Assembly (NCBI GenBank): GCA_043228905.1
Contig: JBHGNT010000009.1
Coordinates: 19,096,001-19,160,000, forward strand
Origin: Azolla caroliniana
Taxonomy: Eukaryota > Plantae > Polypodiophyta
Reading direction: 5' to 3'
DNA: 64,000 bases
Shown here: positions 466 to 64,000 of the stretch, in pieces
Numbering within the stretch: the first letter of the stretch is position 1
How the letters are laid out: every line of letters starts with the position of its first letter
Program-made: the position numbers and the translations under genes
Notes under the pieces: model-generated
Told to the model about the DNA's origin: nothing
Seen by the model: the letters and a program-made list of their open reading frames with translations, nothing else
Databases searched by the model: none

Positions 466-1193
466 TGTCGTAATGTATTTTGTACACTACGTGAAAAACG
501 TATATAGTATTAGATTCAATAAAAAATGAAGAAATAGAAGAAAATAGCAAAATAAATGGAACATGCATAGGGCAAGATTCGAACCTTGCACCTCCATGTT
601 AATAATGTAATGTCTTACCATTACACTAGCATTTCATTAGTGTTAAAGCATAGATGTCCCACATAGAAAGGTAAATTCACGCTAGGATAAACATTAGAAA
701 AACGCATAACAAAAGAAAAAGCTACACATACACATCTAGCGTGCATGATAAAAAACGCACAAGTTAGAAAAAAGCATGATCACTTTAGATAAAGCATATA
801 GTCTATCTATAGGAAAAGCATGGGGTCTATAGTTAGAGAAAAAGCATAGATTACTAAGACTTCCTCATCACTACATAAGGATGGGGAGCACAATGTAATT
901 GTGTGTGAAAAATATTTGGAAACTGGATATGTTTCTAAAAAACACCAATTAATAAACTATACTCGTGGGATTCACGAGAATTCTATATCATTCTCTTTCA
1001 ACCCAAATTTATATTCTTATATTCATATTGATTAATCAAATACAATACACTCGTGGGATTCACGAGTTTGCTATAACTCTTTCTTACAACATATTTATAT
1101 TCTTATTAGCCTTAAAACTCTCCTCTTCCTAGTCCAAAACCTCGGCGGTTCCCACCCGACTCACGCAACGATCCGAAGCCGAAAGGCACGACA
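466..1193 (+). mobile_element. Solo LTR, Phygy-like gypsy family
   Basis: TGTCGTAATG...GGCACGACA; 4-bp TSD ACGG (462-465 / 1194-1197); similar to the LTRs at 13646, 15109 and 61436. Confidence 0.95.
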
Positions 1194-4614: not shown

Positions 4615-5345
4615 TGTCGTGAAGAAAACCGTCCCCAGGCGCAAACTGTGTATGGTGTGTGTGAACCGGCCCTTACATGTGGGCACACCCCTTGTTGTAT
4701 AGTGGATAGGTAGGCACAAAGGTCAAATCCTAGGTAGCAATATTCTATAGGGGAAATCGAGGAGTATCTCTGTCCGAAAGGATAGAGAATGAATGTGATG
4801 TAAACGGGTGAAACGGCCTCCCTCCTTGAGCTATAAAAGAGAGGGAGACGGGGGAGAGAAGGTATCGCGCGCTAGAGGGGACAAAGTGCTGTCGGACTGG
4901 GACTGAGCTCTTCTTCTCTGTCGTTCTCCATAGCTTTCTTTTGCGCAGGTTCTCAGGAGGTTGATCCTGCTCCGTGGAACGCCCGTGTGCTTCCGACAGA
5001 ATCTCCATCTTGCTCTCCTGTGTGCGTGGGCGATCAGGTCGTCAGAATCTCCATCTTGCTCTCCTGTGTGCGTGGGTGATCAGGCACCGACATCCATCTC
5101 GCCGACCTGATCGGCTGTAACCGTATGAGTCCTCTACATACATACAAATACATACATATATTTATATACATACGCTAGTGTTCTCAACTCGTGTCTCCTG
5201 TGTTGTTGGGCCGCGTCCCCGTGCGCTTCTTTGTCTATACGTGTGTGAGCGTCTCTCGCTCTCTATCTCTCTCTCCCTCTTCTCACCTCTTCCTCGGTCC
5301 AAGACCCCAGTGGTCCTGCCTTGTTCTCCACGCACGCGTGTACAA
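4615..5345 (+). mobile_element. Solo LTR of a related TGTCGTGAAG family, inside the 4489 LTR
   Basis: TSD ACGT (4611-4614 / 5346-5349); the empty site TTCACGTATATTTTC is seen in the sister LTR at ~13857; 3' end slightly eroded; related to 37151-43622. Confidence 0.85.
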
Positions 5346-6581
5346 ACGTATATTTTCTAGGAAAAAGCTTTAGTTAGAAGAAAAACGCATGATAGAAAAA
5401 AGCTACACGTGCACATCTAGCGTGCATAAACACAATAGTCGATAAAAAACGCATGAGGTTAGAAAAAGCATGTTAGAGAAAGCATATAGTCTATAGATAG
5501 AGAAAACATATAGTCTATAGATAGAGAAATCATATAGTCTATAGTTAGAGAAAAACAATGGATTGTGAAGACTCTCTCTCATCACTATATAAGGATGGGG
5601 AGCACAATGTAATGGGTGTGTGTGAAATATTTGGAAATTGGATATATTTCTAAAAACACCAATTAATAAACTATACTCGTGGGATTCACGAGGTTTCTAT
5701 ATTCTTCTCTTTCAATCTAAATTCATATTCTTATCTTAATATTGATTAATCTAATACAATATACTTGTGGGATTCACAAGTTTCAATCTCTCTTTCTTAT
5801 AATAGATTCACATTCATAACTAAACTCGTCTCAAATTCTTCCTCCTAGTTCAAAACCCCAACGGTTCCCACCTGACTCACGCAACGATCTGGCGCCAAAA
5901 GGCACGACACAGTTGGTGAACCCAACGTCAAGACGGGTGGCAAGGAGATGGAGAATCAACAAGAGGTGATGAAAACGATAATGATGATGTTCGAGCGGAT
6001 GCTACAACAACAATGAGCGATATCGGAGATCACGATGTTAATAAAGAGGCTCGTACAACGAAACAGACAATTCAACGGAAAGTGTCATGATATGGCAAGA
6101 CTCGAACCCATGACCTTATGCTACATGGGTCGAGCTCTTACCATTAGACTATGAATTGTAATTTGTAGGATATTATTTTCATTTATGCTTTATCATAGAA
6201 AATTGATGTATATTCCAGATCTCTCTGGAACATTCTAGAAGCTTCATGATTATTCCTAAAAACACTATAAAAGGAGGCACAAGGCATTGTTTTGAACCAA
6301 ATTGGTTCAACACCAGTCTTAAGCCTCTTAGCCGATTTGTACTTATCTTTCATATAATATAAGAGCTGCTGTCATCATCCTATCTCTCTCTCTCCTCTTC
6401 TCACTTTCTCTCTCTCGGGAATCTTACGCAGTCCCGTCCTCTTAGTACTAATAGTACTGCTCTTCTTAGTACTAATTCCATCTCTGCTTTAGTACTATTC
6501 CTGACAGTTTGAACCAATTTTCCCTCTTTCCTCCAGCCTACTTGTCGTTCTCCCTCATCCTCCTACCCTTTTCCCTCTACT

Positions 6582-11308: not shown

Positions 11309-11748
11309 GGGGGAGATAGTGTCATGATATGGCAAGACTCGAACCCATGACCTTATGCTACATGGGTCGAGCTCTTACCATTAGACTATGAATTGTAATT
11401 TGTAGGATAATATTTTCATTTATGCTTTATCATAGAAAATTGATGTATATTCCAGATCTCTCTGGAACATTCTAGAAGCTTCAGGATTATTCCTTAAAAC
11501 ACTATAAAAGGAGGCACAAGGCATTGTTTTGAACCAAAATCGTTCAACACCAGTCTTAAACCTCTTAGCCGATTTGTACTTATCTTTCATATAATATAAG
11601 AGCTGCTGTCATCATCCTATCTCTCTCTCTCCTCTTCTCACTTTCTCTCTCTCGGGAATCTTATGCAGTCCCGTCCTCTTAGTACTAATAGTACTGCTCT
11701 TCTTAGTACTAATTCCATCTCTGCTTTAGTACTATTCCTGACAGAAAG

Positions 11749-13645: not shown

Positions 13646-14353
13646 TGTCGTAGTGTATTTCGTATACTACGTGAAAAACGTGTATAGTACTAGATTCAAT
13701 AAATAAGAAGAAATAGAAGAAAATATTAAAATATAAATTACGTGCATAGGGCAAGATTTGAACCTTGTACCTCCGTGTTAATAATGTAAAGCCTTACCAT
13801 TACACTAACACATCATAAGATTTAAAAAAGAAGATATCCCACGTAGAAAGGTAAGTTCACGTATATTTTCTAGGAAAAACTTTAGTTAGAAGAAAAACAC
13901 ATGATAGAAAAAAGTTACACATGCACATTTAGCGTGCATAAACACTATAGTCGATAAAAACGCATGAGGTTAGAAAAGCAGGATCACTTTTAGAAAAAGC
14001 ATGTTAGAGAAAGCATATAGTCTATAGATAGAGAAAGCATGGAGTCCATAGTTAGTGAAAAAGCATGGATTGCTAAGACTCTCTTGAATCACTATATAAG
14101 GATGGGAGCACAATGTAATAGGGGGGAGAAAATTATGGATGAAAAATCATTAGGGTTAAAAATTAATGATTAATAAAATAAACTATGCTTGTGGGATTCA
14201 CAAGTTTCTATATCTTTCTTTTCCAATCTATTCCTATTGATTCTTAAAATCTATTCATAACTAGATTCATCTCAAGTTCTTCCTCCTCCTAGTCCAAAAC
14301 CCCAGCGGTTCCCACCCGACTCATGCAATGATCCGACGCCGAAAGGCACGACA
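13646..14353 (+). repeat. 3' LTR of the 4489 element
   Basis: TGTCGTAGTG...GGCACGACA after the PPT. Confidence 0.93.
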
Positions 14354-15106: not shown

Positions 15107-15847
15107 GTTGTCGTAGTGTGAATCACACATTACGTGAAATATGTAAAATACTATATCCGATTTAAAGTACGTATAATAAATAAAATAAAATATTAAAAAT
15201 ATGTTTTACATGCATAAGGCAAGATTCAAACCCTGTACCTCTATCTAGATAAACCCCAACCTTACCATTGTACTAACTTATCCTAAGTGTTTTAAATATA
15301 GATTTAATACATATAAGACCTTTATTTACGCCTACCTTTATTAAAAGGTAAGTCATGCATGTTTTTTAGAATGCGTGAATACTTTATTTATAATAAAAAA
15401 AATGTACACCAATGAAAAATGACTCGTGCACATTTAACGAGCATGAGCACTATATTTAGGAAATAAAAGCATAGTGTAAAAAGGCAACTCATGCACATTT
15501 AGTGTGCATGAACACCCTAGAAAAAGCATGAAGCTATGCTTAGCCTCTTCCATCCTTATATAAGGAGGAGAGAAAGATGTATGGGGGGTTGTTGATTATT
15601 TTACAAGGATTGATTAATAAAAAAATATTCGTGGGATTCACGATTTTGCCATCTATTTCTCCCTTACATTCTAAGTATCAATTAATACACTATACTCGTG
15701 GGATTCACGAGTTTTTCATATCTTTCTTTCTTACAACATATTTCATATTCTTCATTGCCTTAGAATTTTCTTTTCTCCTAGTCCAAAACCTCAGTGGTTG
15801 CCACCAGACTCACGCAAACGATCCGGCGCCAAAAGGCACGACACAAG

Positions 15848-15864
15848 TGGTGAACCTAACGTGA
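15848..15864 (+). promoter_or_regulatory. PBS complementary to the 3' end of tRNA-Trp
   Basis: TGGTGAACCTAACGTGA; the perfect version TGGTGAACCCGACGTGA at 62246 is the reverse complement of plant tRNA-Trp ...TCACGTCGGGTTCACCA. Confidence 0.85.
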
Positions 15865-15881
15865 ACACGGGTGGCAAGGAG

Positions 15882-17931: not shown

Positions 17932-20900
17932 AGTGGACTGTTGCGTAGTGGGGAAGTGATAGTCCGAGAAGCCCTGATACCCCACACAGGAGAAAACTCT
18001 CGGAGCAAAACAAGTACGAATCGGTCCGGATGGGGCATCTATGTACATGGCCGTAACCGGAGGAATGAAGAAAGAATACCGAAAAGTGGAGGATAAGTTA
18101 CGGTCGGCATCAATAATAAAAGAAGATGAAGAAATCGTGGGAATAGTTGAAGAAATGTTCTATGGGAGCACGCTACAACGGCTTGAAGAGCTCGCGAAAG
18201 ATACAAGCCAGGGAGACCGGGTAGTCCTGGTGGAATCGGTCGAGATGTACGAGATCATTGTGAAAATGGGGCCGGATATGCTCCGCAAAGAAGAAGCAAT
18301 GGTAAGTATGAAATACAAGACCGTGGAGAAGAAGGTGAATGTGGCCGCGGGACCACTACCTGCCGATAGCGAACAAAAGAGGAAAGAAGTCTCGGGAGAT
18401 CCGACACTTCAGAAGTCCGTGGATATTGGACATGCCTTCAAGGATGAGACCCCGGAAGAAACTTTGGATTGGTGGAGGTGGTTTCCTTTTACAAAATGAA
18501 GAAGAACGATTCCGAGGGATGTTGGAACAACATGGGAAAGCATTTGCATTCACATTGAAGGAGATAGGGTGCGTTGATCCGAAGATAGTGGAGCCGATGG
18601 TGATCTTCATGATTGACCATGTGCCGTGGAACCTGAAGCCGATTCCGGTGCCACGGACACATATTTTGAAAGTCATCAACTTGCTCAAGGAGAAGGTGGC
18701 GATGGGGATTCTAGAGCCATCAAGTGCTCCGTACTCAAATCGATGGTTTACGGTTCCGAAGAAGAATGGGTCACTCCGATTTATCCAAGACTTGCAATCG
18801 GTAAACAAAGTCATGATCCGGAACTCCGGAGTCGGTCCGATAGTGGATGAATTTGCGGAAGCATTTGCCGGTCGAGCGATATACTCCATCGGAGACCTAT
18901 ACTCGGGGTATGACCAATTCCAGCTAGCCGTGGAGAGCCGAGACATCACTACCATGCGGACACCGATAGGATTAGTCCGGATGTGTACGCTACCACAAGG
19001 CGCGACGAACTCGGTCGCACATATGATGAATGCAATGAACAAGGTGCTTCGAGACTGCATTCCGGAGATAACGATGCTTTTCCTGGATGACATTCCGATG
19101 AAAGGATGCGCGGTAGAAGAAAACGATGAAACTATGGATGATCGAGGATGCCGAAAGTTCGTAGTCGACCATATTCGCGATTGCGAGAAAGTGCTTCGAA
19201 AGTTAGAAGATGTGCACCTAACACTTTCCGGGGAGAAATCGGCATTCGAGCAAGAAGAAATATTGGTAGTCGGATATCTATGTGGGCCCTACGGCCGAAG
19301 ACCGTCACCGACCAAGATCGATGCAATTCAAGCTATGAAAGAAAAATGCGAGTCACAATCTGAAGTCCGAAGGTTTCTCGGAGCATGTGCACTCTATCAC
19401 ATATGGATTCCGCACTATGCACATATTGCGGACCCACTCTATCACTTGTTGCGGAAGGGTAAGAAGATTGAATGGAAACCGGAGCATACCAAAGCTGTGA
19501 AGAAGCTCAAGAAATCACTACGGAGGGCAAAAGCACTAAAGAAGTTGAACTATGACCGACTGATCATAGTAATGGTTGCCACGAGTCCAAATGGAATCGG
19601 ATGGGTCATCAATCAAGCCGATCCGGATGGTTCGCGATATCCGATCCGATTCGGAGCAAAGGTTCTCAATGAAAGGCAACGCGGATATGCACAAGTCAAA
19701 AGAGAATTATGGGGAGTCATGTCGGCAATCAAATCGGATCAAGATTATTTGATCGGGGTTGAAGTAGTGATCGAAACGGATTGTCTTCCGATACTCGGGA
19801 TGATGCGGTGTTGCACGATACCGGATGTGGCTATGCTAAGATGGATTGCATATGTTAAGTCGCTTAATCCGGAGGTACGACACATCTCCGGAAAAGACAA
19901 TGCGGTAGCGGATATGCTATCAAGGGCGAGGTTCGGAGATGACATAACCGAATCCGATAATGAAGAAGTTTCCGAAGACTACTTTGCTTCAGAGCACATA
20001 TGCCGGGTGAACATAATCCGAGAATTCTGGAAAGAAGAATACGAGGGAGAAAGCTTGCTGATCGGGAAAGTGCTACAAGAAATCGAGAAATCATCGGACA
20101 ATAAAGAGAAGAGATCCGAGATCTGAAGTAAGAAGCGGCAAGTTCGAAAGTTCTTCTTGAAAAATGGGTTAATAGGAGGGAGCCGAAAAGACCGGATGGC
20201 ATACCACTTCGGGTAGTCGGGACGAAAGAGCAACGAAACCGGATAATGTCCGAATTTCACGAATCCGATTGGGCTGGACATTGAGGAACATGGGCAACTT
20301 TTGTGCAAATCAAACAAAAATATTGGTGGAAGAACATGTACAAAGATATAGCGGAATTCACGGAAAGCTGCGAGAAGTGTCAAATCTACTCCGGAGTTCG
20401 ACACCGAGATGAGTTACATCTGACATTCTCACCGACAATCAATTTCAAATGGATGGTCGATATTGTAGCCATGCCAACTGGGATCAGACAAAAGAAGTAC
20501 TTGATGTTAGCTCGGGAAGATCTCACAAACCAAGTAGAAGGTCGGGCGCTACGAAGGAAAACATGTTCTGCGGTATGCCAATTTCTTTTGGAGGAGGTGT
20601 TTTGCAGGTACAAGTGATTGCGGATCGGGGAGAACTCAACTCTGATAAAGCTAAGGAATTCTTCACCAAACATGGAGTTCGGTTAACATTGACAACGGCA
20701 TACAATCCAGAAGCCAACGGGAAGATTGAACGAGGACATAGTCTGATCGTCAAAGCACTTGCGAAGGCATGCGATGGAAGTGTGAAGAATTGGTCGCAGA
20801 TGCTTCCGTATGCACTATGGGCGGATCGGACGACACATAGCTCCGTAACCGGTTACATGCCGGCAGAACTCATGACCGGACAAGCACCGATAATGCCAAC

Positions 20901-21458
20901 GGAAACCGCGATCGCAACATGGACAATGCTACCGTGGAAGGAAGAGATGAGCCGGAAAGAACTACTAGCGGTCCAGATACGACAACTAGAGGGAAGACCG
21001 GAAGACCGGAAGACGTAGCGGAAGCAATGCGCCGACAACAAGAAGCGCGATTCCGGAATAAAAGCATGTTCGACACAAAGCACTGACTACGACTGCGGAA
21101 GATTGAAGAAGGAGATTGGGTGATTGTCTACGACAGTAGTTTGGATCATCAACATAGAACGATGTGGAAGTTCGCGAAAAGGTGGTTCGGGCCATACGAG
21201 GTTCGGAAAGTTTTCGACAACAGAACTTACCGACTATGCGAGTTGGATGGAACGATGCTACGAGTGTCTATAGCTGGGAAACGGGTGAAGATTTTCAAGA
21301 AGCGGACTGATGAAGAACCTTATGTGATCCTAGACAAGACCGACAAGAAGGAGCAATCGGACGAAGATTGCGGTGATGCGGAAAGCGAAGAAAGTGGATT
21401 ACAACTCATAGTCGACTTAAGGGGAGAATCGGAGGAAGCTTCGGATGAAGATGAATAG
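17932..21458 (+). pseudogene. pol: pol (RT-RH-IN), Phygy-like, with frameshifts and stops
   Basis: ORF 18339-20126 with DLYSGY, LPQG, FLDD, ETDC, NAVADMLSR; IN 20303-21018 (C..C, D..D..E, YNPEANG); FGPY at ~21185. Confidence 0.92.
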
Positions 21459-22251
21459 AAAGCATCGGGGACTTCGGCACATACCGGAGGATGTGCGGGT
21501 TCGGAGAGGGCGAGTGTCGTAGTGTGAATCACACACTACATGAAATATGTAAAATACTATATCCGATTTAAAGTACGTATAATAAATAAAATAAAATATT
21601 AAAAATATGTTTTACATGCACAAGGCAAGATTCAAACCCTATACCTCTATATAGATAAACCCCAACCTTACCATTGTACTAACTTATCCTAAGTGTTCTA
21701 AATATAGATTTAATACGTATAAGACCTTTATTTACGCCTACCTTTATTAAAAGGTAAGTCATGCATGTTTTTTAGAATGCGTGAATACTTTATTTATAAT
21801 AAAAAAATGTACACCAATGAAAAATGACTCGTGCACATCTAACGAGCATGAGCACTATATTTAGGAAATAAAAACATAGTGTAAAAAGGCAACTCATGCA
21901 CATTTAGTGTGCATGAACACTCTAGAAAAAGCATGAAGCTATGCTTAGCCTCTTCCATCCTTATATAAGGAGGAGAGAAAGATGTATGGGGGGTTGTTGA
22001 TTATTTTACAAGGATTGATTAATAAAAAAATATTCGTGGGATTCACGATTTTGCCATCTATTTCTCCCAAGTTACATTCTAAGTATCAATTAATACACTA
22101 TACTCGTGGGATTCACGAGTTTTTCATATCTTTCTTTCTTATAACATATTTCATATTCTTCATTGCCTTAGAATTTTCTTTTCTCCTAGTCCAAAACCTC
22201 AGTGGTTGCCACCTGACTCATGCAAACGATCTGGCGCCAAAAGGCACGACA

Positions 22252-22639: not shown

Positions 22640-25600
22640 TGTCATGATATGGCAAGACTCGAACCCATGACCTTATGGTATATGGGTCGAGCTCTTGAAT
22701 TACGATATTATTTTCATTTATGTTTTATTATAAGAAAGTAATGTATATTCCAGATTTCTCTGGAACATTCTAGAAGTTTCAGGATTACTCCTGACAACAC
22801 TATAAAAGAAGGCACTAGGCATTATGTTGAACCAAATTGGTTCGACGCCAGTCTTAAGCCTCTTAGCCGATTTGTACTTATCTTTGGACATAATATAAGA
22901 GCTGTTGTCATTATCATCTCTCTCTCTCTCTCTCTCCTCTTCTCACATCCTCTCTCGGGAATCTCACGTAGTTCCGTCCTCTTAGTACTAATAGTACTAC
23001 TCTTCTTAGTACTAATTCCATCTCTGCTTTAGTACTATTCTTGACAGTTTGAACCAATTTTTTCCTTTCCTCCAGCCTACTTGTCGTTCTCCCTCATCCT
23101 CCTACCCTTTTCCCTATACTATGGCTACTGTTAGCGCCCAAGAATATCAATCCGTTTTCTCCAAGTTACAGTGCCTAAAAGAAAAGTTTGTTGCCCTGGA
23201 ACAAGAAAAACCAACGGTTGATAGGGGATCTGCAACAAATCGCTCTCGAAAAACAACAAACGCAACAACAACATGGGGAGTTAGCATTACGGGTACAACA
23301 ACTCGAAGCAGCGTTGCAACAACAAGGATCAAGTCCCCAAGGATTTCATAAAGAGCCCAAGATTGGACTTCTTGTGAAATTTGATGGAACGCGATCGCAA
23401 TTTCGGGGATTCCTTAATCAGGTACGCTTAGTCATCCAGATGCATCCTTCCAGATATCCCACTGATGCATCTCGAGTCGGCCTAATAGGCACGTTACTTA
23501 GCAGCTCAGCCTTGGCATGGTTCGCTCCGCTTCTAGAAAAACAATCACCCTTGCTTAATAACTTTGAAGATTTTATTGGTGAGTTTAAAGCCTACTTTGG
23601 AGATACCGACAACATCTGGACGGCGATCAACAAGATCCGAAGATTGCGTCAAGGCGATCGTCCAGCCTCTGCCTACGCGGCGGATTTCCGTCCACTCGTC
23701 TCAGATATTCCTTGGGATGATCAGGCCCTCATGTACCAGTTTCACTACGGCTTCCACAATGATGTCAAAGATCTGCTTTTAACCTTCCCCGAAGAACCAA
23801 AGTCTCTTACGAAGGCAATCAATCGAGCGGTCCGATGCGACAACCGCCTTTTCGAACGGCGTTCGGAGCGTCAGTTACAAATACCACGCTCTCGGCCGGA
23901 ACCCACATATGCCTCAGTCACGGCTAAACCGTTTGCACGCGATGTACCCCAAGCCAATATTCCGACACCGATGGAGATTGACAGCATGCGTTGACGCGGC
24001 CCATTATCGGAAGAAGAAAAGCAACGACGACGTGCCAATCGATTATGTCTTTATTGTGGTGGACCAGGGCATATCGCCATCAATTGTCCCCATAGGCCAA
24101 GAAGACAGGTAAATCAAATCATCTCTTGTACTAAACCCGAGTCAATTCTTCCCTTCGGAGTGTCTGATAGTATTAATAGTACTAATAGAGTGTCAGATAG
24201 TATTCATAGTACTAATAGCCCAAGTATCTCAAAAAAATTTGAAATCCTTAGTCAATTAGATGAAGAGTTAAACGATTGAGTCCAGCCAAAATAGGAGCCG
24301 TTTGGTTGGACAGCAGCCCTAGATCTGTACAGCCCATTAGTGGTTCCATTCCTTCCAAGCAAGTTAGCAATGTGTTCCTAGCCCAAGTCATTGTTAGTAC
24401 TAAAAGTACTCCCCCAGTACCCGTCCTAGCACTCTTAGATTCCGGAGCTAATTCTTGTTTCATGGATCGAAATTTTGCCCAAGCTTCTCAGATATCCCTA
24501 AGAAAACTTCCTTGTCCCGCATTTGTAGTAGTCATTGATGGTCGTCCCATTGCTTCTGGGAATATTGTAGAAGAACTAGAACCCATTCAAGTTGTCCTAT
24601 GTAGTTTTGTGTGTGTAATATCATTTAATATAATTAGTAGTCCAGAGCATCCCATTGTCCTAGGATTACCTTGGTTTCAATTACATAATCCAGCCATAGA
24701 TTGGAGAACAAGAGAAGTCCGATATTGACCACCCCAAGAACCTACTCATCGAGTTTCGACCATCTCACTCCATCATTTACGCGAAGAAGGACACAAGGAG
24801 GCAATGTTCCTATTTGCAATATCAGTACATCCTTCCAGCACTATTAAGAAGGACTCCTCAGTACAACTTCTGGCAAAATATCATCCTTATGCCGATGTAT
24901 TTGACAAGGTAAAAGACGGTACCCTTCCGCATCACCGTCCCTATGACTGTCCCATCGATTTACAACCAGGAACCGAGCCACCATGGGGACCAATTTACAA
25001 CTTGTCACCCACCGAGTTAGAAGTCCTTCGAGCCTACATAGAGGAGACCTTGGCAAGCGGGTTCATCCGTCATTCGGAATCTCCGGCCGGTGCACCCATC
25101 TTCTTTGTCAAGAAGAAAGATGGCTCACTTCGTCTCGTCGTTGATTACCGCGAATTGAATAAGGTCACCATCCGGAATAGGTATGCACTTCCTCTTATAT
25201 CAAGTCTTTTAGAGCGAGTTAATGGTGCCAAGTTTTTTACCAAAATCGATCTACGAGGAGCGTATAACCTCGTGCGGATCCGACCGGGAGATGAATGGAA
25301 GACCGCCTTTCGCATTTCGCGTATACTGTTATGCCATTTGGCTTAACCAATGCACCCGCAGTCTTCCAACACATGGCAAATGATATATTCAGAGATCTCT
25401 TGGATATCTGTTTGATCATTTATCTGGATGATCTATTGATTTATTCGAAGACCCAGGAAGAGCACGATTCTCATGTACTATTAGTATTAAATCGACTCCG
25501 CGAGAATGGTCTTTATGCCAAGCTAGAAAAATGTAGCTTTGACTGCAAGCAAGTGGAATTTCTAGGCTACGTCATCTCCTCAAAGATTATCCTACCCCTC

Positions 25601-28600
25601 ACACAACTTACGAAGAAGGCCCAAGCATTTCTTTGGTCCATTGAAGTAGATATGACTTTTCGGCATGTTAAGAAAGCCTTTACATCAGCACCAATTCTAG
25701 CTCATGTGGATACTAGCAAACCATTCATTATGGAGGCCGATGCTTCCGATTTCGCCCTCGGTAGCATCCTTTCTCAACAAGGAGATAAAGAAGAGTTGCA
25801 TCCGGTGGCTTTCCATTCGCGCAAATTCGATGTTGCCGAAATTAACTACGAAATACATGACAAGGAGTTATTAGCCATCGTGGATTCATTTGTGCAATGG
25901 CGGCATTTCTTCCAAGCAAGTTAGCAATGTGTTCCTAGCCCAAGTCATTGTTAGTACTAAAAGTACTCCCCCAGTACCCGTCCTAGCACTCTTAGATTCC
26001 GGAGCTAATTCTTGTTTCATGGATCGAAATTTTGCCCAAGCTTCTCAGATATCCCTAAGAAAACTTCCTTGTCCCGCATTTGTAGTAGTCATTGATGGTC
26101 GTCCCATTGCTTCTGGGAATATTGTAGAAGAACTAGAACCCATTCAAGTTGTCCTATGTAGTTTTGTGTGTGTAATATCATTTAATATAATTAGTAGTCC
26201 AGAGCATCCCATTGTCCTAGGATTACCTTGGTTTCAATTACATAATCCAGCCATAGATTGGAGAACAAGAGAAGTCCGATATTGACCACCCCAAGAACCT
26301 ACTCATCGAGTTTCGACCATCTCACTCCATCATTTACGCGAAGAAGGACACAAGGAGGCAATGTTCCTATTTGCAATATCAGTACATCCTTCCAGCACTA
26401 TTAAGAAGGACTCCTCAGTACAACTTCTGGCAAAATATCATCCTTATGCCGATGTATTTGACAAGGTAAAAGACGGTACCCTTCCGCATCACCGTCCCAA
26501 TGCGGGACAAGGAACCGAGCCACCATGGGGACCAATTTACAACTTGTCACCCACCGAGTTAGAGGTCCTTCGAGCCTACATAGAGGAGAACTTGGCAAGT
26601 GGGTTCATCCGCCATTCGAAATCTCGAGCCGGTGCACTCATCTTCTTTGTCAAGAAGAAAGATGGCTCACTTCGTCTTGTCGTTGATTACCGCGGATTGA
26701 ATAAAGTCACCATTCGGAATAGGCATGCACTTCCTCTTATATCAAGTCTTTTAGAGTGAGTTAATGGTGCCAAGTTTTTTACTAAAATCGACCTACGAGG
26801 AGTGTATAACCTCATGTGGATCCGACCGGGAGATGAGTGGAAGACCGCCTTTCGCACGCGGTATGGGTATTTCGAGTATACTGTTATGCCATTTGGCTTA
26901 ACCAATGCACCCGCAGTCTTCCAACACATGGCAAATGATATATTCAGAGATCTCTTGGATATCTGTTTGATCATTTATCTGGATGATCTATTGATTTATT
27001 CGAAGACCCAGGAAGAGCACGATTCTCATGTACTATTAGTATTAAATCGACTCCGCGAGAATGGTCTTTATGCCAAGCTAGAAAAATGTAGCTTTGACTG
27101 CAAGCAAGTGGAATTTCTAGGCTACGTCATCTCCTCGAAGATTATCCTACCCCTCACACAACTTACGAAGAAGGCCCAAGCATTTCTTTGGTCCATTGAA
27201 GTAGATATGGCTTTTCGGCATGTTAAGAAAGCCTTTACATCAGCACCAATTCTAGCTCATGTGGATACTAGCAAACCATTCATTATGGAGGCCGATGCTT
27301 CCGATTTCGCCCTCGGTAGCATCCTTTCTCAACAAGGAGATAAAGAAGAGTTGCATCCGGTGGCTTGCCATTCGCGCAAATTCGATGTTGCCGAAATTAA
27401 CTACGAAATACATGACAAGGAGTTATTAGCCATCGTGGATTCATTTGTGCAATGGCGGCATTTCTTCCAAGCAAGTTAGCAATGTGTTCCTAGCCCAAGT
27501 CATTGTTAGTACTAAAAGTACTCCCCCAGTACCCGTCCTAGCACTCTTAGATTCCGGAGCTAATTCTTGTTTCATGGATCGAAATTTTGCCCAAGCTTCT
27601 CAGATATCCCTAAGAAAACTTCCTTGTCCCGCATTTGTAGTAGTCATTGATGGTCGTCCCATTGCTTCTGGGAATATTGTAGAAGAACTAGAACCCATTC
27701 AAGTTGTCCTATGTAGTTTTGTGTGTGTAATATCATTTAATATAATTAGTAGTCCAGAGCATCCCATTGTCCTAGGATTACCTTGGTTTCAATTACATAA
27801 TCCAGCCATAGATTGGAGAACAAGAGAAGTCCGATATTGACCACCCCAAGAACCTACTCATCGAGTTTCGACCATCTCACTCCATCATTTATGCGAAGAA
27901 GGACACAAGGAGGCAATGTTCCTATTTGCAATATCAGTACATCCTTCCAGCACTATTAAGAAGGACTCCTCAGTACAACTTCTGGCAAAATATCATCCTT
28001 ATGCCGATGTATTTGACAAGGTAAAAGACGGTACCCTTCCGCATCACCGTCCCAATGCGGGACAAGGAACCGAGCCACCATGGGGACCAATTTACAACTT
28101 GTCACCCACCGAGTTAGAGGTCCTTCGAGCCTACATAGAGGAGAACTTGGCAAGTGGGTTCATCCGCCATTCGAAATCTCGAGCCGGTGCACTTATCTTC
28201 TTTGTCAAGAAGAAAGATGGCTCACTTCGTCTTGTCGTTGATTACCGCGGATTGAATAAAGTCACCATTCGGAATAGGCATGCACTTCCTCTTATATCAA
28301 GTCTTTTAGAGTGAGTTAATGGTGCCAAGTTTTTTACTAAAATCGACCTACGAGGAGTGTATAACCTCATGTGGATCCGACCGGGAGATGAGTGGAAGAC
28401 CGCCTTTCGCACGCGGTATGGGTATTTCGAGTATACTGTTATGCCATTTGGCTTAACCAATGCACCCGCAGTCTTCCAACACATGGCAAATGATATATTC
28501 AGAGATCTCTTGGATATCTGTTTGATCATTTATCTGGATGATCTATTGATTTATTCGAAGACCCAGGAAGAGCACGATTCTCATGTACTATTAGTATTAA

Positions 28601-31181
28601 ATCGACTCCGCGAGAATGGTCTTTATGCCAAGCTAGAAAAATGTAGCTTTGACTGCAAGCAAGTGGAATTTCTAGGCTACGTCATCTCCTCGAAGATTAT
28701 CCTACCCCTCACACAACTTACGAAGAAGGCCCAAGCATTTCTTTGGTCCATTGAAGTAGATATGGCTTTTCGGCATGTTAAGAAAGCCTTTACATCAGCA
28801 CCAATTCTAGCTCATGTGGATACTAGCAAACCATTCATTATGGAGGCCGATGCTTCCGATTTCACCCTCGGTAGCATCCTTTCTCAACAAGGAGATAAAG
28901 AAGAGTTGCATCCGGTGGCTTTCCATTCGCGCAAATTCGATGTTGCTGAAATTAACTACGAAATACATGACAAGGAGTTATTAGCCATCGTGGATTCATT
29001 TGTGCAATGGCGGCATTTCTTAGAGGGCTCTCCACATCAGGTCGTTGTCTTTAGTGATCATAAAAATTTCTTTATTTCCAGAACGCTCGCGTACTAAATC
29101 GACGGCAAGCTCGGTGGGCGCAATTCCTCACGCGTTTCGACTTCAAAATCACATATCGACCGGGGAAGCAGCAAGGAAAAGCAGATGCACTATCACGGCG
29201 TTCATATCTTGCACACGATGTGGATTTTTGACACCCCGATAGATTCACGGATTACCGATGACATACGTGCAAACTTGAAGACGGATAGTTTTGTTCAAGA
29301 CATCTTGGCGCACATTGATACTTCTCGGGCATCCTGTTCTCAGTCTCAACAACCAGGTATTGACTACTGACAATTCGAATATCATGATGGTTTGTTATTC
29401 TTTAAAAAGCGTGTATATGTCCCCGATTGCTCTTGTCGCCTTCAAATCGTCCAATATTGTCACGACACCCATACGGCGGGACATTTCGGTAGTACTAAGA
29501 AGTTGGAGCTAGTGCAACGATCTTTTTGGTGGCCCCACATGCGCCGTTTTGTCGACGACTACGTTCGGACCTGTGATGCTTGCTGCCGAGCAAAGATGCC
29601 ACGACACCATCCATATGGCTTGTTGGAACCCTTACCGATTCCAAGTAAGCCGTGGCAGTCTATTTGTCTTGATTTTATCACAGATCTACCGGTCTCGCAG
29701 GGGTTCGATGTTATCTTAACCGTCGTCGATCGATATACGAAGATGGCACATTTTGTTCCGTGTACTAAGGCTATCACTAGCGAGGAAACCGCCGCCCTAG
29801 TCATGCGTGAGGTATTTCGGCATCATAGCCTCCCAGACAGTATTATGAGTGACCGAGGCCCGCAATTTTACTCCAAATTTTGGCAGCATCTCTTCGAGAT
29901 GCTCAAGGTCTCTTGCAACCTCTCCTCCGGTTACCATCCTCAGACCGATGGGTAGGCAGAACGAACAAACCAAACGTTGGAGCAATATCTCTGGTGTTTC
30001 CTGAGTTATCAACAGGACGGTTGGGCCGAGATTCTCCACTTTGCGGAGTTTGCGTATAATAATGTTGTTCACTCCTCGACTCAGGTCTCCCCATTCTACA
30101 CTTATACCGGTTCTCATCCTCACTGGTCGGTGATCGACACCCCTGAGCTACCTACCAATCCTCGTGCCGGGGATCATTTTGAGAGACTAAGCAAGATCCA
30201 GACAGATCTCTCGACTCATCTTCGTCATGCTCAATAGACACAGAAGACTTACGCGGATCATCATCGGCTTCCCTCTTTTGCCATCAGAGATCGAGTATGG
30301 CTCTTACGTCGTCACATCAAGACTACTCGACCGTGCGACAAGTTGGATTATCGACGACTCGGTCCTTTCCGTATTACGGGTAAAGTTAATGATGTCACAT
30401 TCCGCCTTGATCTCCCTCCGCAGCTTCAGATACATTCGGTTTTCCATTGTTCTCTTCTTGAACCTTATAAAGCGAACACCATTCCCGATCGTGTTACACC
30501 ACCGCCGCCCCCGCTGGAGTTGGACGCCGTCCCGGAGTATGAAGTTGCGGCCATCCTCGATTCCAAACTTATTCGCAACAAACTTTATTATTTGGTCGAT
30601 TGGGTTGGTTATAGTCTGAGCGAACGCACTTGGGAACCCGTCGAGCATGTTGCCAATGCTCAGGATCTACTTGCTGATTTTCACCGAAAGTATCCGGACA
30701 AACCCGGTCCGCAGACAGCGCCAACTCGTTCCACTCGTCATCTTTAAGGGGGAGATAGTGTCATGATATGGCAAGACTTGAACCCATGACGTTATGGTAT
30801 ATGGGTCGAGCTCTTAACCATCACACCATTTATTGTAATTCATAGGATATTATTTTCATTTATGTTTTATTATATGAAAGTAATGTATATTCCAGATTTC
30901 TGTGGAACATTCTAGAAGTTTCAGGATTACTCCTGACAACATTATAAAAGAAGGCACTAGGCATTATGTTGAACCAAATTGGTTCACCGCCAGTCCTAAG
31001 CCTCTTAGCCGATTTGTACTTATCTTTTCACATAATATAAGAGCTGTTGTCATCATCTCTCTCTCTCTCTCCTCTTCTCACTTCCTCTCTCGGGAATCTC
31101 ACGCAGTCCCGTCCTCTTAGTACTAATAGTACTACTCTTCTTAGTACTAATTCCATTTCTGCTTTAGTACTATTCCTGACA
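22640..31181 (+). mobile_element. Tcn1-like chromovirus copy 2 with internal tandem triplication
   Basis: LTRs 22640-23046 and 30759-31181; TSD GATCG; frameshifted gag 23121-24279; pol rearranged. Confidence 0.95.
24352..29021 (+). repeat. Three tandem ~1.56-kb PR-RT-RH units (starts 24352, 25909, 27464)
   Basis: Near-identical ORFs recur at 1555-bp spacing (25890/27445, 26361/27916, 26802/28357); junction GGCATTTCTT|CCAAGCAAG. Confidence 0.95.
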
Positions 31182-31186
31182 GATCG

Positions 31187-37577: not shown

Positions 37578-37648
37578 TGTCATGAGATGGCAAGACTCGA
37601 ACCCATGACCTTATGGTATATGGGTCGAGCTCTTAACCATCTCACCAT
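37578..37648 (-). promoter_or_regulatory. tRNA-like A-box/B-box cassette in Tcn1-like LTR (also at 6083, 11320, 30759, 42823; A box deleted at 22640)
   Basis: Minus strand TGGTGAGATGGTTAAG...GGTTCGAGTC with 44-nt spacing. Confidence 0.65.
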
Positions 37649-38017
37649 CTATTGTAATTCATAGAATATTATTTTCATTTATGTTTTATTATAAGAAAGT
37701 AATGTATATTCCAGATTTCTCTGGAACATTCTAGAAGCTTCAGGATTATTCCTGAGAACACTATAAAAGAAGGCACTAAGCATTATGTTGAACCAAATTG
37801 GTTCAACACCAGTCTTAAGCCTCTTAGTCGATTTGTACTTATCTTTCATATAATATAAGAGCTGTTGTCATCATCCTATTTCTCTCTCTCTCTCCTCTTC
37901 TCACTTCCTCTCTCTCGGGAATCTTACGCAGTCCCGTCCTCTTAGTACTAATAGTACTAATAGTACTACTCTTCTTAGTACTAATTCCATCTCTGTTTTA
38001 GTACTATTCCTGACAGT

Positions 38018-42811: not shown

Positions 42812-43453
42812 GGGGGAGATAGTGTCATGAGATGGCAAGACTCGAACCCATGACCTTATGGTATATGGGTCGAGCTCTTAACCATCTCACCATCTATTGT
42901 AATTCATAGAATATTATTTTCATTTATGTTTTATTATAAGAAAGTAATGTATATTCCAGATTTCTCTGGAACATTCTAGAAGCTTCAGGATTATTCCTGA
43001 GAACACTATAAAAGAAGGCACTAAGCATTATGTTGAACCAAATTGGTTCAACACCAGTCTTAAGCCTCTTAGTCGATTTGTACTTATCTTTCATATAATA
43101 TAAGAGCTGTTGTCATCATCCTATTTCTCTCTCTCTCTCCTCTTCTCACTTCCTCTCTCTCGGGAATCTTACGCAGTCCCGTCCTCTTAGTACTAATAGT
43201 ACTAATAGTACTACTCTTCTTAGTACTAATTCCATCTCTGTTTTAGTACTATTCCTGACATCAGTCCGGCTCAAAGCCGGGAGTGTATTCTTCTTATATA
43301 TATACATATACGTTTGCATCTGTCTGTGTATATTGGCGTTTTTGTTGGTGTCGGGTGCTCCCCCCCTTTCCTGCGTTTCCTGTACATGAGGGCGTGAGAT
43401 GCGCGCGTGTGTGCGTGTGCGTGTGTGTGTGTGCGCGCGCGAGTCGGTGTTAA

Positions 43454-59805: not shown

Positions 59806-61636
59806 TCTCTAAGAGGATATCTTCGTCTTTTGCTTTTGGCAACCGGCTCCTCTATTTGTTCCTCATGTGAATCCGATTCGGGGTCTTGGCCGGTTCCCGT
59901 TTCAGCTTCCTCTGCTTCTTCTTCTGCTGGTTCGGTATCCTCATCATAACCGGTTGGTTCCTCAAGTGTCAACCGGCTCTTAGTCGGGTGGGTTCGAATC
60001 TCATCGGAGTTCATTATCTTCTTCCCCGACTCCCAGTCGGCAAGAGTCTTGTCCTCCACGAAGATAATATCTCGGCCCCGGAAAACCTTCTTGTCAACCG
60101 GATCCCACACTCGGTAGCTGAACTCATCATCGCCGTATTCGTGGAATATGCATGGCCGCGTCTTTGAATCAAACTTTCCTCTCCGATCCTTAGCAACATG
60201 CACGTACGTGAGACACCCGAACACCTTCAGATGCGGGTAGGACACTTCCTTACCGGTCGACACCTTTTGCGGCGTTTCTCCATCCAAGGGCACTGAGGGT
60301 GATCTGTTTATCACATATGTCGCTGTCAACAGCGCCTCGGCCCAAAACGTCTTGGGTAGCTTAGCATGTGCTAGCATACTCCGGACCCTCTCCATTATGG
60401 TCTGGTTCATCCTCTCGGCCAACCCGTTTAATTCTGGCGTCTTCGGCACGGTAAATTCGAGCCGGATTCCCTTCGAGCGGCAGTACTCCTCGAATTGCCC
60501 CTGGTATTCTCCTCCGTTATCTGCTTGAACTGCCTTCAGCTTTTGTCCGGTTTCTCTTTCCACTCTTGCGTGGAGCTCCTTGAAAACGGATAACATCTGA
60601 TCCTTCGTCTTCAACGGTGTGGCCCATAGCCTCCTACTGTGGTCATCTATGAATGTCACGAAGTACTGCGCTCTAGCATGGGACTTTGTGTCCACTTGAC
60701 ACACATCGGTATGCACCAACTCGAATGGTGCATTACGTCTCATCGGTGGCGTTGATCGGAAGGAGGTCCGGTTTTGCTTACCGGCTAGGCAGTCAGTGCA
60801 CCTCTCAAGATGCACGTTCTTCATCAGAATGAGGTTGTCATCGGCAAGCCTCTTCATTCCCTTCTCGCTCATGTGACACAGTCTCTTGTGCCACAGCTCA
60901 CCGGCAGTGTCGGATGCCACGTTCACTTCTTCCGGGCATAACCGGGCATTCATCAGGTACAACGTGTTGACCTTCCGGGCCCGAGCCACTATCAGGCTCC
61001 CTTTGCTAAATTTCATGACTCCGTTCCAAATGCTACCCGTGTAGGCTACATCATCTAGCCGACCGGCTGATATCAGGTTCAGTCGAACTTCCGGAATGTG
61101 TCGGCCATCCTTCAGCAGCAGCTTGCATCCGGTTGGTGTTGTCAACCACACGTCTCCTATGCTGACAATTCGGCATGTACGTTCATTCCCCATCCGGACA
61201 CAGCCGCGATCACTGGTTGTGTAGGATGATAAGCATTTCCGATCCGGGGTAAGGTGGAACGACGCTCCGGAATCGACAACCCACGTTGTCTCATCATCGA
61301 CAAGGTTCAACTCACTCTCCTCGGTGATGAGCATCAACTCTTCTTCACTTGCCACGATTGCCGTCGTTCCCTTCTAGTCCGGTCCCCTTCGGTCTTTACC
61401 GTTCCAGTCCGGTGACCGCTTCGAATCGGTACCGTTGTCGTAGTGTAGGTTGCACACTATGTGGAAATTATAATTTTGTCTCTCCGGATAGAGAATGGAG
61501 TGCTCGGTGAGAACCGGAAGAAAACTGCATACCGGCAAGGAGGAAAACGGCATACCGGCAAGGAAGAAAACGGCATACCGGCAAGGAAGAGCCGGATAAA
61601 GAGACATAAATGTAAAATAAAAGGAAATACTCACTA

Positions 61637-61704
61637 CTGCGCAGGGCGTGATTCGAACTCTGCACCTCCACGTTGACAAACCCCAACCTTACCATTACAT
61701 TAAC
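61637..61704 (-). promoter_or_regulatory. tRNA-like A-box/B-box cassette in Phygy-like LTR (also 565-630, 13744-13810, 15211-15277, 21617-21683)
   Basis: Minus strand TAATGTAATGGTAA...GAGTTCGAATC with ~42-nt spacing. Confidence 0.65.
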
Positions 61705-62279
61705 TTATCTTAAGTGTTTTTAAAAATAGATTTAATACGTATAAGACCTTTATTTATGCATACCTTTATTAAAAGGTAAATCGTGTATTTTTTTAATATA
61801 TGAAAAAAAGAAAAACACGAGACACTAAAAATAACTCATGCACATCTAGCGTGCATGAGCCCTATACTTAGGAAATAAAAAAAGCATCACATGCACATTT
61901 AGTGTGCATGATCATATTAGAAAAAGCATGTAGCTATGCTTAGTCTCTCCCATCACTATATAAGGACGGGGAGCACATTGTAGTTGTTGTTGATTGTTTG
62001 GACCAAATATATTTTCAATACAAAAATTATTCGTGGGATTCACGATTTATACATCTACTTCTCTCTTAACACCCTAAGTACCAATTAATATAGTATACTC
62101 GTGTGATTCACGAGTTTCTTATCTTTCTCTTTGCTATTTACTCATAATTAATCTCTATCTCACGAACTTCTTTCTCCTAGTCCAAGACCTCTGTGGTTCC
62201 CACCCGACTCACGCAACGATCCGGAGCCGAAAGGCACGACACAGTTGGTGAACCCGACGTGAAGACGGGTGGCAAGGAG

Positions 62280-64000
62280 ATGGAGGCTCAACAAGCTAAC
62301 AATATGATGGCGATGTTCGAACGGATGCTTCAAGAACAACGCACGATGTCGGAGATTTCGGCATTAGTAGAGCGGCTCGTGCAACGCAACGGGCAATTTA
62401 ATGGTAAGGATGTGTCGCGATATTTGCAGGACTACAAGGCGGAGATGCTCCGGTGCCGGGCTTCGGAAGGACTGCAAGTGACATCCTTTAACCGGGTGGC
62501 GACCGACGGGCTTCAAGGGAGTATCCACGGGTTGCAACAACAAAATCCGACGTGGGAAGCATTCGAAGAGGCGTTAAAGACCACGTTTGCCATCGAGGAC
62601 TCCTCCAAGGCAACGCGGAGGGGATTCGAGGATTGGGTGGAAACGTCAGGTAAGGGGCTGAAGGTCCTCGAAGTGTTTTCGACATTTGAAAGTCGGTTCG
62701 GGAGGTTGTCCGCGAGAGATCAAACTATTCTTGCGCCGGACAAAGTCATCATGTTTTTGCGAGCTGTGGACGTCCGGGACCGGAAAGATCTCGGAGTGCT
62801 TCTTGAGGACACGACCACCGAAAGCGGCCTCACCGAAACATGGGAAAGCGTGCGGGATATCGTCGCGCGGTACACGAAGAGGGGGCAATGGCTTGCCAAC
62901 GAAGAAAAGAGGGTTTCGGAACCGATTCCGAAACCGAGAACGGGACTGGAAGACCATCAACCGAGGGCTCGGGAGATTACGGCCGAGAAGGGAGTCGACG
63001 CGTCTACGGTGGAGCAGCTGCTGAAGGAGATGGAGAATCTAAAGATCGCGATGGTGAAGAAGTCGGATGACCGCCCCACAAGCTCCAAATATACGGATCG
63101 ACGGTGCATATGGTGCGATAGCGCCGAACACGATCGGAGGGATTGCGACGACCATAAGGAGGCGCTACGACGGGATCTCATCTACTACGAGGGAAACCGG
63201 ATTCATTCGATGGACTCTCGGAAGCCACTCCGACCGAACTTCCGGAAAGGCGGCATGAAGAAGGTGCTCGAGGAGGAGTTATCGGCAAGAAGCAACTATG
63301 CGACAACCGCGGGAATATGTGTCGGGGAGTCAACGGGAGCGAAGGCGTCTTTCTGGCCGGAGGTGCTAGGAAACACCGAGAAAACCGACTCCAACGATAT
63401 CCGAAACACCGCGGAAGGCGTCCGGGAAGCTACGGGATGGGAGTGCCCTGTCGACAAGAATAGCATATACGCCCTGTGTCAATTACATGAGGTGTATGTG
63501 GACGAGAAACGACGGCGCACGGAGGATGCGACAGGATCATCGAAGATACCGGAAAGCTGGAACTCCGGAGGTAAGGGAAAAGAAAAGGCGACTCCGGCAT
63601 TCAAGCTCGCCTCGGACATAGAACAACAAACCGACTTGAAAAGAGTGTTCGAGGAAAGAATCTTGGATAGCCGGGTAGATTTTTCGCTGCGGGAACTACT
63701 CGGAATAGCGAAGGAGTTTCACGATCTTCTCGTGGATCTCGTGAAAAGGAAGAGACAAAGTACGGAGGAAAATGCTCCAAGGGTGAATGCAAATACCGTT
63801 TCAATGAACGACACCGAAGTGGAAGGCGAAATTCCGAACTCCCACTATACAAGGCCACACTGGGCACGTGCGACTACTGAGACTCCGGTCCGAATCGGCA
63901 ACATCAAAGAACCCGTGCTAGCATTGATTGATCACGGATCGGAGATCAACTTGATGTCCAAGGAGTTCTACCGAAAGGGGAAGTGGCCTATAAACACCAA
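62280..64000 (+). CDS. gag: Gag-protease, apparently open to the window end (partial)
   Basis: ATG at 62280; CIWCDSAEHDRRDC; ALIDHGSEIN at 63921 in the same frame; absent from the ORF track, consistent with no stop before the edge. Confidence 0.88.
   Translation, partial: MEAQQANNMMAMFERMLQEQRTMSEISALVERLVQRNGQFNGKDVSRYLQDYKAEMLRCRASEGLQVTSFNRVATDGLQGSIHGLQQQNPTWEAFEEALKTTFAIEDSSKATRRGFEDWVETSGKGLKVLEVFSTFESRFGRLSARDQTILAPDKVIMFLRAVDVRDRKDLGVLLEDTTTESGLTETWESVRDIVARYTKRGQWLANEEKRVSEPIPKPRTGLEDHQPRAREITAEKGVDASTVEQLLKEMENLKIAMVKKSDDRPTSSKYTDRRCIWCDSAEHDRRDCDDHKEALRRDLIYYEGNRIHSMDSRKPLRPNFRKGGMKKVLEEELSARSNYATTAGICVGESTGAKASFWPEVLGNTEKTDSNDIRNTAEGVREATGWECPVDKNSIYALCQLHEVYVDEKRRRTEDATGSSKIPESWNSGGKGKEKATPAFKLASDIEQQTDLKRVFEERILDSRVDFSLRELLGIAKEFHDLLVDLVKRKRQSTEENAPRVNANTVSMNDTEVEGEIPNSHYTRPHWARATTETPVRIGNIKEPVLALIDHGSEINLMSKEFYRKGKWPINT

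Follow-up and report, generated by a model that had tools for sequence, protein, structure and literature searches.

The U3 regions of two distant lineages of Gypsy retrotransposons carry a real, widespread and apparently undescribed module. It is a tRNA-derived cassette in antisense orientation, likely captured from a tRNA, which has lost the tRNA fold and kept the A box, the B box and the spacing between them. We tentatively suggest that it persists as a binding site for the transcription factor TFIIIC.

The window, which is the whole stretch of 64,000 nucleotides analysed here (19,096,001-19,160,000 of the contig), is a nest of LTR retrotransposons. Judged by its Phygy and Tcn1 lineages, the host is probably a moss. 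A minus-strand cassette had been predicted at 61637-61704 from the sequence, and it is present as quoted. The focal element at the end of the window comprises the following features.

61432..61435, plus strand: target site duplication (TSD) of 4 bp, CCGT (NCGN type), at the focal element
61436..62241, plus strand: 5′ LTR of 806 bp (TG...CA) of a young Phygy element, host of the focal cassette
61619..61622, minus strand: first T4 run, a weak candidate for a Pol III terminator
61637..61704, minus strand: focal antisense tRNA-like cassette in U3, 20.6 bits with the host-tRNA profile
61649..61659, minus strand: B box (tRNA positions 52-62), beginning 43 nt after the A-box start
61664..61667, minus strand: AGGT at tRNA positions 44-47, invariant in 15/15 aligned Phygy cassettes
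61675..61677, minus strand: GTC at tRNA positions 34-36, without an anticodon stem; the triplet differs among families
61692..61702, minus strand: A box (tRNA positions 8-19)
61957..61963, plus strand: TATA-like box ~255 nt inward of the A box, putative promoter of the LTR for Pol II
62181..64000, plus strand: gag-type ORF, extending past the window end
62246..62262, plus strand: primer binding site (PBS), 17 nt complementary to the 3′ end of host tRNA-Trp including CCA

The 3′ LTR lies 6,470 bp further on, outside the window, and is 99.6% identical to the 5′ LTR. After gag, a second ORF in another frame encodes 1,241 aa with reverse transcriptase (RT), RNase H and integrase domains (Pfam) and no chromodomain. 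The ORFs occupy the whole 5.66-kb interior of this 7.3-kb element with gag and pol. All 40 scored genome matches to the focal cassette region (of 1,274 candidates) are 100% identical, which marks the family as young. The assignment to Phygy, a non-chromovirus group of Ty3/gypsy, is supported by the Trp PBS, the NCGN-type TSD of 4 bp and the absent chromodomain. NCGN was found in 41 of 49 scored 3′ flanks of the Phygy-A group, and in the accessible text of Neumann 2019 (PMC6317226) a 4-bp TSD with NCGN preference is reported for Phygy only. The comparison family carries a Chromo domain (PF00385) at the integrase end and a PBS that is not complementary to a tRNA, and the sequence past its 5′ LTR is complementary to a 7-nt site inside its own LTR. 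This matches the Tcn1 clade, which the same source characterizes by a chromodomain at the integrase end, the lack of a tRNA PBS and self-priming. The original prediction that the two families differ in lineage and priming thus holds.

The four homologous Phygy cassettes that had been predicted in the window are present, together with six cassettes in Tcn1 LTRs.

565..630, minus strand: Phygy-A cassette in the solo LTR 466-1193 (TSD ACGG)
6093..6154, minus strand: Tcn1 cassette in LTR 6083-6506, B box ending ~15 nt from the LTR 5′ end
11330..11391, minus strand: Tcn1 cassette in LTR 11320-11744
13744..13810, minus strand: Phygy-A cassette in the 3′ LTR 13646-14353
15211..15277, minus strand: cassette of the 5′ LTR at 15109-15843, with a C56-to-T change that damages the B box
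21617..21683, minus strand: cassette in the matching 3′ LTR (to 22251), with the same B-box damage
22650..22678, minus strand: Tcn1 cassette in the LTR at 22640, reduced to the half with the B box, A box lost
30769..30828, minus strand: Tcn1 cassette in the LTR at 30759
37587..37645, minus strand: Tcn1 cassette in LTR 37578-38015, with a variant A box
42832..42890, minus strand: Tcn1 cassette in LTR 42823-43260, identical to the copy at 37587

Since both LTRs of the element 15109-22251 share the B-box damage, it was inherited through replication. Two elements of the window show further peculiarities. The Phygy-A 5′ LTR at 4488-5909 is without a cassette owing to a deletion that begins at the B-box end, and just behind it contains an LTR of the cassette-less Phygy group; the 3′ LTR of the same element (13646) has retained its cassette. 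The Tcn1 element 22640-31182, whose 5′ LTR is without an A box, contains tandem internal duplications of ~1,555 bp over the protease-RT region.

The relation to tRNA, which had been part of the prediction, is evident from a profile for which 37 tRNA sequences of the host were the sole input. It gave 13 matches in the window, of which 11 are all of the known cassettes, five of Phygy and six of Tcn1. In 264 kb of DNA, 13 matches of at least 10 bits were obtained, compared with none in each of 20 block shuffles and none in the reversed sequence. With a matrix of the A and B boxes, the focal LTR scored above 60 of 60 shuffles. A functional tRNA gene was ruled out: ARAGORN reported no tRNA, Rfam gave no tRNA family at E≤10, and the covariation score for a cloverleaf was reached by 259 of 500 shuffles (paired cells 46.9%, shuffled 45.6%). 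Two details of the prediction stood only in part. The GTC triplet does occupy exactly the anticodon positions 34-36; it carries no weight, as the sister families have six other triplets there (ATC, ATT, GTT, CTC, CAT, CCT). T-runs had been placed 10-25 nt downstream, and the first runs of at least four T do follow 12-15 nt beyond each of the five Phygy cassettes. However, in this T-rich flank the excess is barely above chance (T4 runs near 40 of 49 Phygy-A cassettes, 34.4±3.1 in shuffles).

A survey of further LTRs for the same position and orientation, as had been suggested, revealed a pattern far wider than the five Phygy and the Tcn1 copies first seen. In a sample for which 3′ LTRs were chosen by the polypurine tract (PPT) junction and not by the boxes, 47 of 50 Phygy-A LTRs and 48 of 49 Tcn1 LTRs (50 fetched, 49 anchored) scored with the host-tRNA profile, all of them on the minus strand. 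Of 5,561 genome matches to the Trp PBS, 30 loci were examined; 26 belong to another large Phygy group, the commonest Trp-primed family, without an antisense cassette, and four carry one, namely the focal family and three further families, one of them with a weak match. At the loci that represent these three families (L257, L262 and L279), gag is no more than 31-35% identical to the focal gag, and a fourth further family with the cassette was found in neighbouring DNA; these families were recognised by the tRNA profile and are biased towards retained boxes. The A+B box matrix placed eight of eight cassette-bearing Phygy LTRs and three of three Tcn1 LTRs above all 60 shuffles. On the minus strand of six cassette-less Phygy LTRs (L286, a nested Copia LTR, was left out) it gave at most 9.6, and six Copia LTRs and the LTR of a Met-primed chromovirus had no significant A+B box match. 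When the Phygy-A LTR is compared with the LTRs of L140, L283 and L285, nothing but the cassette can be aligned. No pair of a Tcn1 and a Phygy LTR aligns at E≤0.001, in agreement with the prediction that the LTRs are otherwise unrelated.

In a tree of Phygy RT sequences, built from genome copies with Tcn1 as outgroup and without the REXdb reference clades, the cassette-less family forms one clade (96/96), a topology that would agree with either gain or loss of the cassette within Phygy. L283 (57% cover) was omitted from the tree, and for L148 and L293 the presence of a cassette is uncertain. In two of the six LTRs of the cassette-less group (L288 and L290), a lone, well-matched B box without an A box was noted in sense orientation, ~60 nt from the 3′ end (p 0.03 each), which may be due to chance. 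A non-autonomous derivative of Phygy-A is located at L302:1659-4874, where identical 729-bp LTRs flank 1,758 bp with a Trp PBS, a gag fragment and the end of pol. Paired matches 2.5-2.9 kb apart suggest many copies of this type.

The distribution among more distant relatives was followed in a metagenome scan, which covered Tcn1. With the integrase end of Tcn1 as query, 80 loci of 42-92% identity were obtained. Seventy-six were taken on, as four matches stopped at a contig end; 16 were dropped because they were too short or without PPT, and the remaining 60 were condensed to 29 non-redundant clusters. In 18 of the 29, the first 140 nt of the LTR scored above all 200 shuffles on the minus strand; p≤0.05 was reached in 20 clusters and not in nine. 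On the plus strand, and in the 140 nt that follow, scores did not go beyond 9.4 bits. Three of the nine negative clusters are the most distant contigs and constitute a clade of their own, and the other negatives appear decayed or misanchored. The cassette is therefore likely to be ancestral to the surveyed Tcn1 radiation. For Phygy, the search in other hosts concerned near-identical contigs only, and no relatives were found on viral contigs. Within the genome, exact patterns recovered 3,374 B-box cores of the Tcn1 type and 2,344 of the Phygy type; in 100 copies of each among the matches listed, C56 is kept in about three quarters and two thirds, respectively.

The conserved positions follow the internal promoter of tRNA genes. 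Among 15 Phygy cassettes the tRNA columns 8, 14, 18, 20, 21, 44-47, 53-55, 58, 61 and one at 68 are invariant. They include the promoter invariants 8, 14, 18, 21, 53-55, 58 and 61, and also AGGT (44-47), which lies outside both boxes. Column conservation tracks that of host tRNAs (Spearman 0.43-0.44, p about 0.002; for the Tcn1 clusters rho 0.44, p 0.0015). Majority frequencies in the Tcn1 clusters are 0.65 for the A box, 0.76 for the B box and 0.47-0.49 for the flanks, and the CpG-containing B box persists over integrase identities of 48-92%. The spacing from A to B box is 43-44 nt in 20 of 25 Tcn1-like clusters with at least 50% protein identity. Thus, with both boxes at tRNA spacing, the layout of a type-2 Pol III promoter is given. 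In 31 Tcn1 cassettes, which had been selected as positives, C56 is retained in 29 and G57 in 17, which agrees with the B-box rule. Single Tcn1 genomic copies decay in both ways (14 against 11 among 100 copies of the matches listed); in the Tcn1 tree, a change of G57 was fixed in ~3-4 clades and one of C56 in a single clade, too few for significance. In neither of the two families does the slightly higher conservation of the boxes over the remaining LTR reach significance (Fisher p 0.27 and 0.37). C56 is changed in 35 of 100 Phygy-A genome copies among the matches listed, and one Phygy-A subfamily has G19 changed.

RNA features are far less constant. No consensus fold was found, and fold z-scores are mostly near 0 across the Tcn1 clusters and +0.8 in the focal family. 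The position of the first T4 varies across families from +0 to +309, or the run is missing; in five Phygy-A subfamilies it lies 21-26 nt past the B box. Only in the main Tcn1 family does the cassette fold into a long rod (z -3.6 to -6.9), with compensatory double changes in four of 11 consensus pairs. In this family the first 70 nt of the LTRs (e.g. window 6083-6160) form the rod hairpin on either strand, with z down to -6.9 to -8.4. The distance from the cassette to the LTR end is ~10-60 nt in Tcn1 and ~100 to 350 nt in Phygy. Where a TATA-like box was found, the cassette is located outside of it, ~115-255 nt apart, and faces outward.

Small-RNA-derived LTR promoters are known from short non-coding terminal-repeat retrotransposons (TRIMs), in which they make the element RNA, and according to the accessible text of Kojima 2024 (PMC10886601) autonomous partners are not expected to share such LTR sequences. 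Since the cassette is reversed, occurs in coding elements of two lineages and was kept over the deep Tcn1 radiation, it would need another job. TFIIIC, a factor of type-2 Pol III promoters, is the known reader of A and B boxes. We propose, with a confidence that falls a little short of an even chance, that the antisense U3 module is kept as a TFIIIC site and acts as a barrier which shields the Pol II promoter of the LTR from silencing. The tRNA-derived module would have lost its fold and been retained as a site in DNA, with selection on replicating master lineages presumably keeping the boxes. Bound TFIIIC would then block the spreading of silent chromatin from the flank into the LTR, and an antisense RNA, ~85 nt in Phygy-A, would be a by-product if it is made at all. 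A protein site is suggested by the retention of boxes and spacing in the DNA together with the loss of a common RNA fold and 3′ end. Lying outward of the TATA-like box, the module is on the side where flanking heterochromatin would arrive. In yeasts, TFIIIC-bound tRNA genes and B boxes are described as heterochromatin barriers (PMC10530723). We also count in favour of a barrier that the cassette-bearing elements are nested in TE-dense DNA, and that one Phygy family (L284) has a bracket-like layout of two outer antisense cassettes and an inner sense one. Against the barrier and against selection speak the non-significant conservation of boxes within families and the replication of Phygy-A copies with a changed C56. 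Further points against the barrier are that the commonest Trp-primed Phygy family thrives without an antisense cassette, that AGGT belongs to neither box, and that the A box and the fixed spacing are retained to the same degree as the B box. A barrier can do with a B box alone, so this pattern agrees with a functional Pol III promoter no less than with a barrier.

A different explanation is a working Pol III gene whose antisense RNA itself matters, by feeding or decoying small-RNA silencing or by damping the element. Its product would span ~85 nt in Phygy-A; from Tcn1 it would run into the flank at the 5′ LTR and back over the polypurine tract at the 3′ LTR. The discrete RNA of ~90 nt suggested from the sequence would be hypothetical, since families differ in the terminator. 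Besides the two boxes and their spacing, the T4 runs of the five Phygy-A subfamilies and the rod of the main Tcn1 family with its double changes are in accordance with such a gene, and the Pol III cassettes in foamy-virus LTRs yield functional small RNAs (PMC3993851). We nevertheless consider it unlikely, as no rod is formed in the focal family, the other Phygy families and most Tcn1 clusters, spacer sequence and 3′ end vary freely, and the T4 excess of Phygy-A is weak. Non-significant conservation within families, replicating copies with damaged boxes, the largest Phygy family lacking the cassette and the recognition bias in the additional Phygy families would also be explained if the module were a neutral relic. 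In that case, an ancient copy of a tRNA or SINE would be decaying in an ancestral LTR, with boxes that seem conserved only by their recognisability. However, the Tcn1 sets were anchored at the polypurine tract and not at the boxes, the B box has survived with its CpG in Tcn1 while the flanks have not been held to a comparable degree, and the cassette forms the only alignable island between Phygy families, so that decay without function appears quite improbable.

It is very unlikely, in our opinion, that the motifs are used by a different protein or in Pol II transcription, as an enhancer or as an integrase or Gag site near the U3 end, with an incidental tRNA origin. AGGT is indeed as invariant as the boxes, and the Tcn1 module is close to the LTR end; but the kept columns form two separate blocks, spaced as in tRNA, that follow the tRNA invariants, and Phygy cassettes lie at variable distances from the LTR end. 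Finally, the U3 of the genomic RNA could pair with the primer tRNA and aid minus-strand transfer, as is reported for HIV-1 U3-R, whose similarity to tRNA-Lys3 is cited from Piekna-Przybylska 2010 in PMC6468702. The cassette resembles this case in being a tRNA-complementary U3 sequence of the same polarity. The focal subfamily contains 12 nt that exactly match the T loop of tRNA-Trp, its primer, and 21 nt are common to tRNA-Lys(TTT) and one Tcn1-like family. HIV-1 U3-R matches the primer tRNA, whereas the cassette lacks a primer preference: by duplex energy, tRNA-Trp ranks 6th, 12th and 15th of 20 tRNAs for three Phygy cassettes. Moreover, Tcn1 is self-priming, without a tRNA primer site, and yet keeps the cassette best; tRNA docking is therefore highly unlikely.

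Among known systems, Helenus/TRIMp3 comes closest; the cassette resembles its promoter part at most and is not a Helenus. These non-coding elements of <1.3 kb, for which Selaginella is named as the sole plant host, have a tRNA-derived LTR part with conserved boxes A and B (PMC10886601), and as in the cassette there is no functional tRNA and no use as primer. In contrast, the cassette hosts are protein-coding Gypsy elements of 5-7 kb with a TATA-like box, and the cassette lies antisense in the outer U3 in all PPT-anchored matches; one Phygy family (L284) has an additional sense cassette. In the Helenus consensus LTRs examined, the tRNA part is in sense orientation and is proposed to drive the element's own RNA. 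The TRIMs Cassandra and Ajax likewise have held a small-RNA-derived Pol III promoter in their LTRs over long times. Unlike the cassette, theirs is 5S-derived and located in non-autonomous elements, and that of Cassandra makes genomic RNA (PMC10886601). The foamy-virus miRNA cassettes share with ours that A/B-box Pol III units reside in the LTR of an autonomous retroelement using Pol II; they give defined hairpin RNAs with terminators (PMC3993851), whereas our cassette has no fold or terminator common to the families and keeps the full tRNA geometry. The action that we propose corresponds to that of tDNA/TFIIIC barriers and ETC sites, with boxes at the edge of a chromatin domain. Those, however, are host loci of yeasts and animals (PMC10530723), and the putative barrier described here would be carried by a transposon for its own promoter. 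In the openly accessible full-text literature searched, moss Gypsy LTRs are not described as carrying an antisense tRNA-like module, and the main text of PMC7466625 contains neither 'tRNA' nor 'SINE' nor 'polymerase III'. Since Kojima mentions that 'not a few' Repbase LTRs hold tRNA-like pieces, which are left unanalysed in that paper, an unremarked database record of the cassette is possible.

If the cassette is bound by TFIIIC, the genome would contain at least 5,700 extra B-box cores, with a bearing on the organisation of TE islands. Binding would also bear on why RLG1, which we take to be a Tcn1 family, is so highly expressed in P. patens. Among the TEs of P. patens, expression is highest for RLG1 (PMC7466625). 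Should the barrier reading be true, transposons would stay expressed in TE-dense heterochromatin and scatter thousands of TFIIIC sites. As cassette-bearing and cassette-less Phygy families coexist in this genome, they offer a natural comparison for the barrier idea.

As to the origin of the cassette, capture from a tRNA appears likely. Of the predicted tRNA- or SINE-derived U3 module, the tRNA derivation in antisense holds in both lineages; the SINE is no closer than the tRNAs. A free-standing host SINE was rejected as donor since it scored below the best tRNA for 37 of 40 cassettes, and no SINE body, tail or TSD was seen around the cassette; other or extinct SINEs are not excluded. A tRNA isotype, including Asp, is unassignable, as the best host tRNA changes from copy to copy in a host tRNA set that is incomplete (e.g. 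no Ala or Phe).

The 15-nt cores of Phygy and Tcn1 differ by one base, as had been noted from the sequence. The shared core was found, however, in one subfamily of each lineage only and is mostly B-box consensus, and so is weak evidence for kinship. When the boxes are excluded, the similarity between Phygy and Tcn1 cassettes is 42%, compared with 40% for tRNAs of different isotypes, and the 43-44-nt spacing of both lineages is plain tRNA geometry. Further tests of kinship are mixed. With the Tcn1 matrix, cassettes of Phygy score higher than tRNAs (p 0.002 overall and 0.045 with the boxes excluded), and in the reverse comparison the Phygy matrix does not rank Tcn1 cassettes significantly above them (p 0.37 and 0.19). 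For 31 of 40 cassettes, AT-rich flanks included, a cassette from the opposite lineage gives a better alignment than each of 52 tRNAs, and the L284 cassette is the most Tcn1-like among the Phygy families. Exchange between the lineages and double capture both stand, with the comparisons giving no more than a hint.

In the standard replication scheme, copying of a tRNA by RT into plus-strand DNA yields the polarity of the PBS. The cassette is on the PBS strand, as would be expected if RT had copied a tRNA in this way, and the same orientation could thus have arisen in two lineages independently. That two distant Gypsy lineages each took a backward tRNA promoter and kept it across their radiation as a portable anti-silencing TFIIIC barrier, with RT copying of tRNA as a recurring source, is a broader scenario which we regard as doubtful. 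If true, repeated capture in PBS polarity would mark RT copying of tRNA as a recurring source of modules.

Additional cassettes were observed in single groups. In one Tcn1 clade, a second antisense A/B-box cassette is situated in the in-frame protease-RT linker, ~320-335 nt before the RT domain (L308:42-100, L310, L311, L315, L152:4330-4390, L297 and L298). In L308 it reaches 29.5 bits, equal to host tRNAs, with a spacing of 42 nt. Four of 39 such regions scored at p≤0.02, three of them from one family; a fifth match (L396) resembles an LTR cassette beside a truncated copy, and the Tcn1 copies of the window have no linker cassette. The young Phygy family at L284:182-1279 has a 1.1-kb LTR (LTRs 99.9% identical) with two antisense cassettes and one sense cassette at ~180-232, 343-396 and 726-779. 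The sense cassette lies further inside the LTR than both antisense ones and scores 28.7 bits; a sense cassette in L285 is weaker. The linker cassette and the three cassettes of L284 are in line with repeated capture. The start of the L330 3′ LTR shares 21 identical nt with host tRNA-Lys(TTT), and its sister L331 differs there; the L330 cassette was possibly refreshed from a tRNA.

The host SINE-like family is free-standing and ~205 bp long, with 30 loci (L433-L462, e.g. G000:C1:32660989-32661104) in addition to L413, L415 and L417. A first look gave 1,770 candidates, and copies are 97-100% alike in the searched part. Their tRNA-like head retains its acceptor stem, the body holds a second, inverted A/B-box unit, and the tail is A/GA-rich. 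For moss SINEs, no paper was found in the literature searched. The copies are nearly always located within (GA)n tracts, sometimes in tandem. Furthermore, the genome contains long tandem arrays of single tRNA types with many degenerate copies, of Asp, Lys and Tyr-like type and, by motif, of Gly type. They were detected at C3:14.65 Mb and 15.25-15.33 Mb, C9:17.80-17.83 Mb and 19.70 Mb, C8:16.32 Mb, C5:17.9-18.0 Mb and C1:26.52 Mb.
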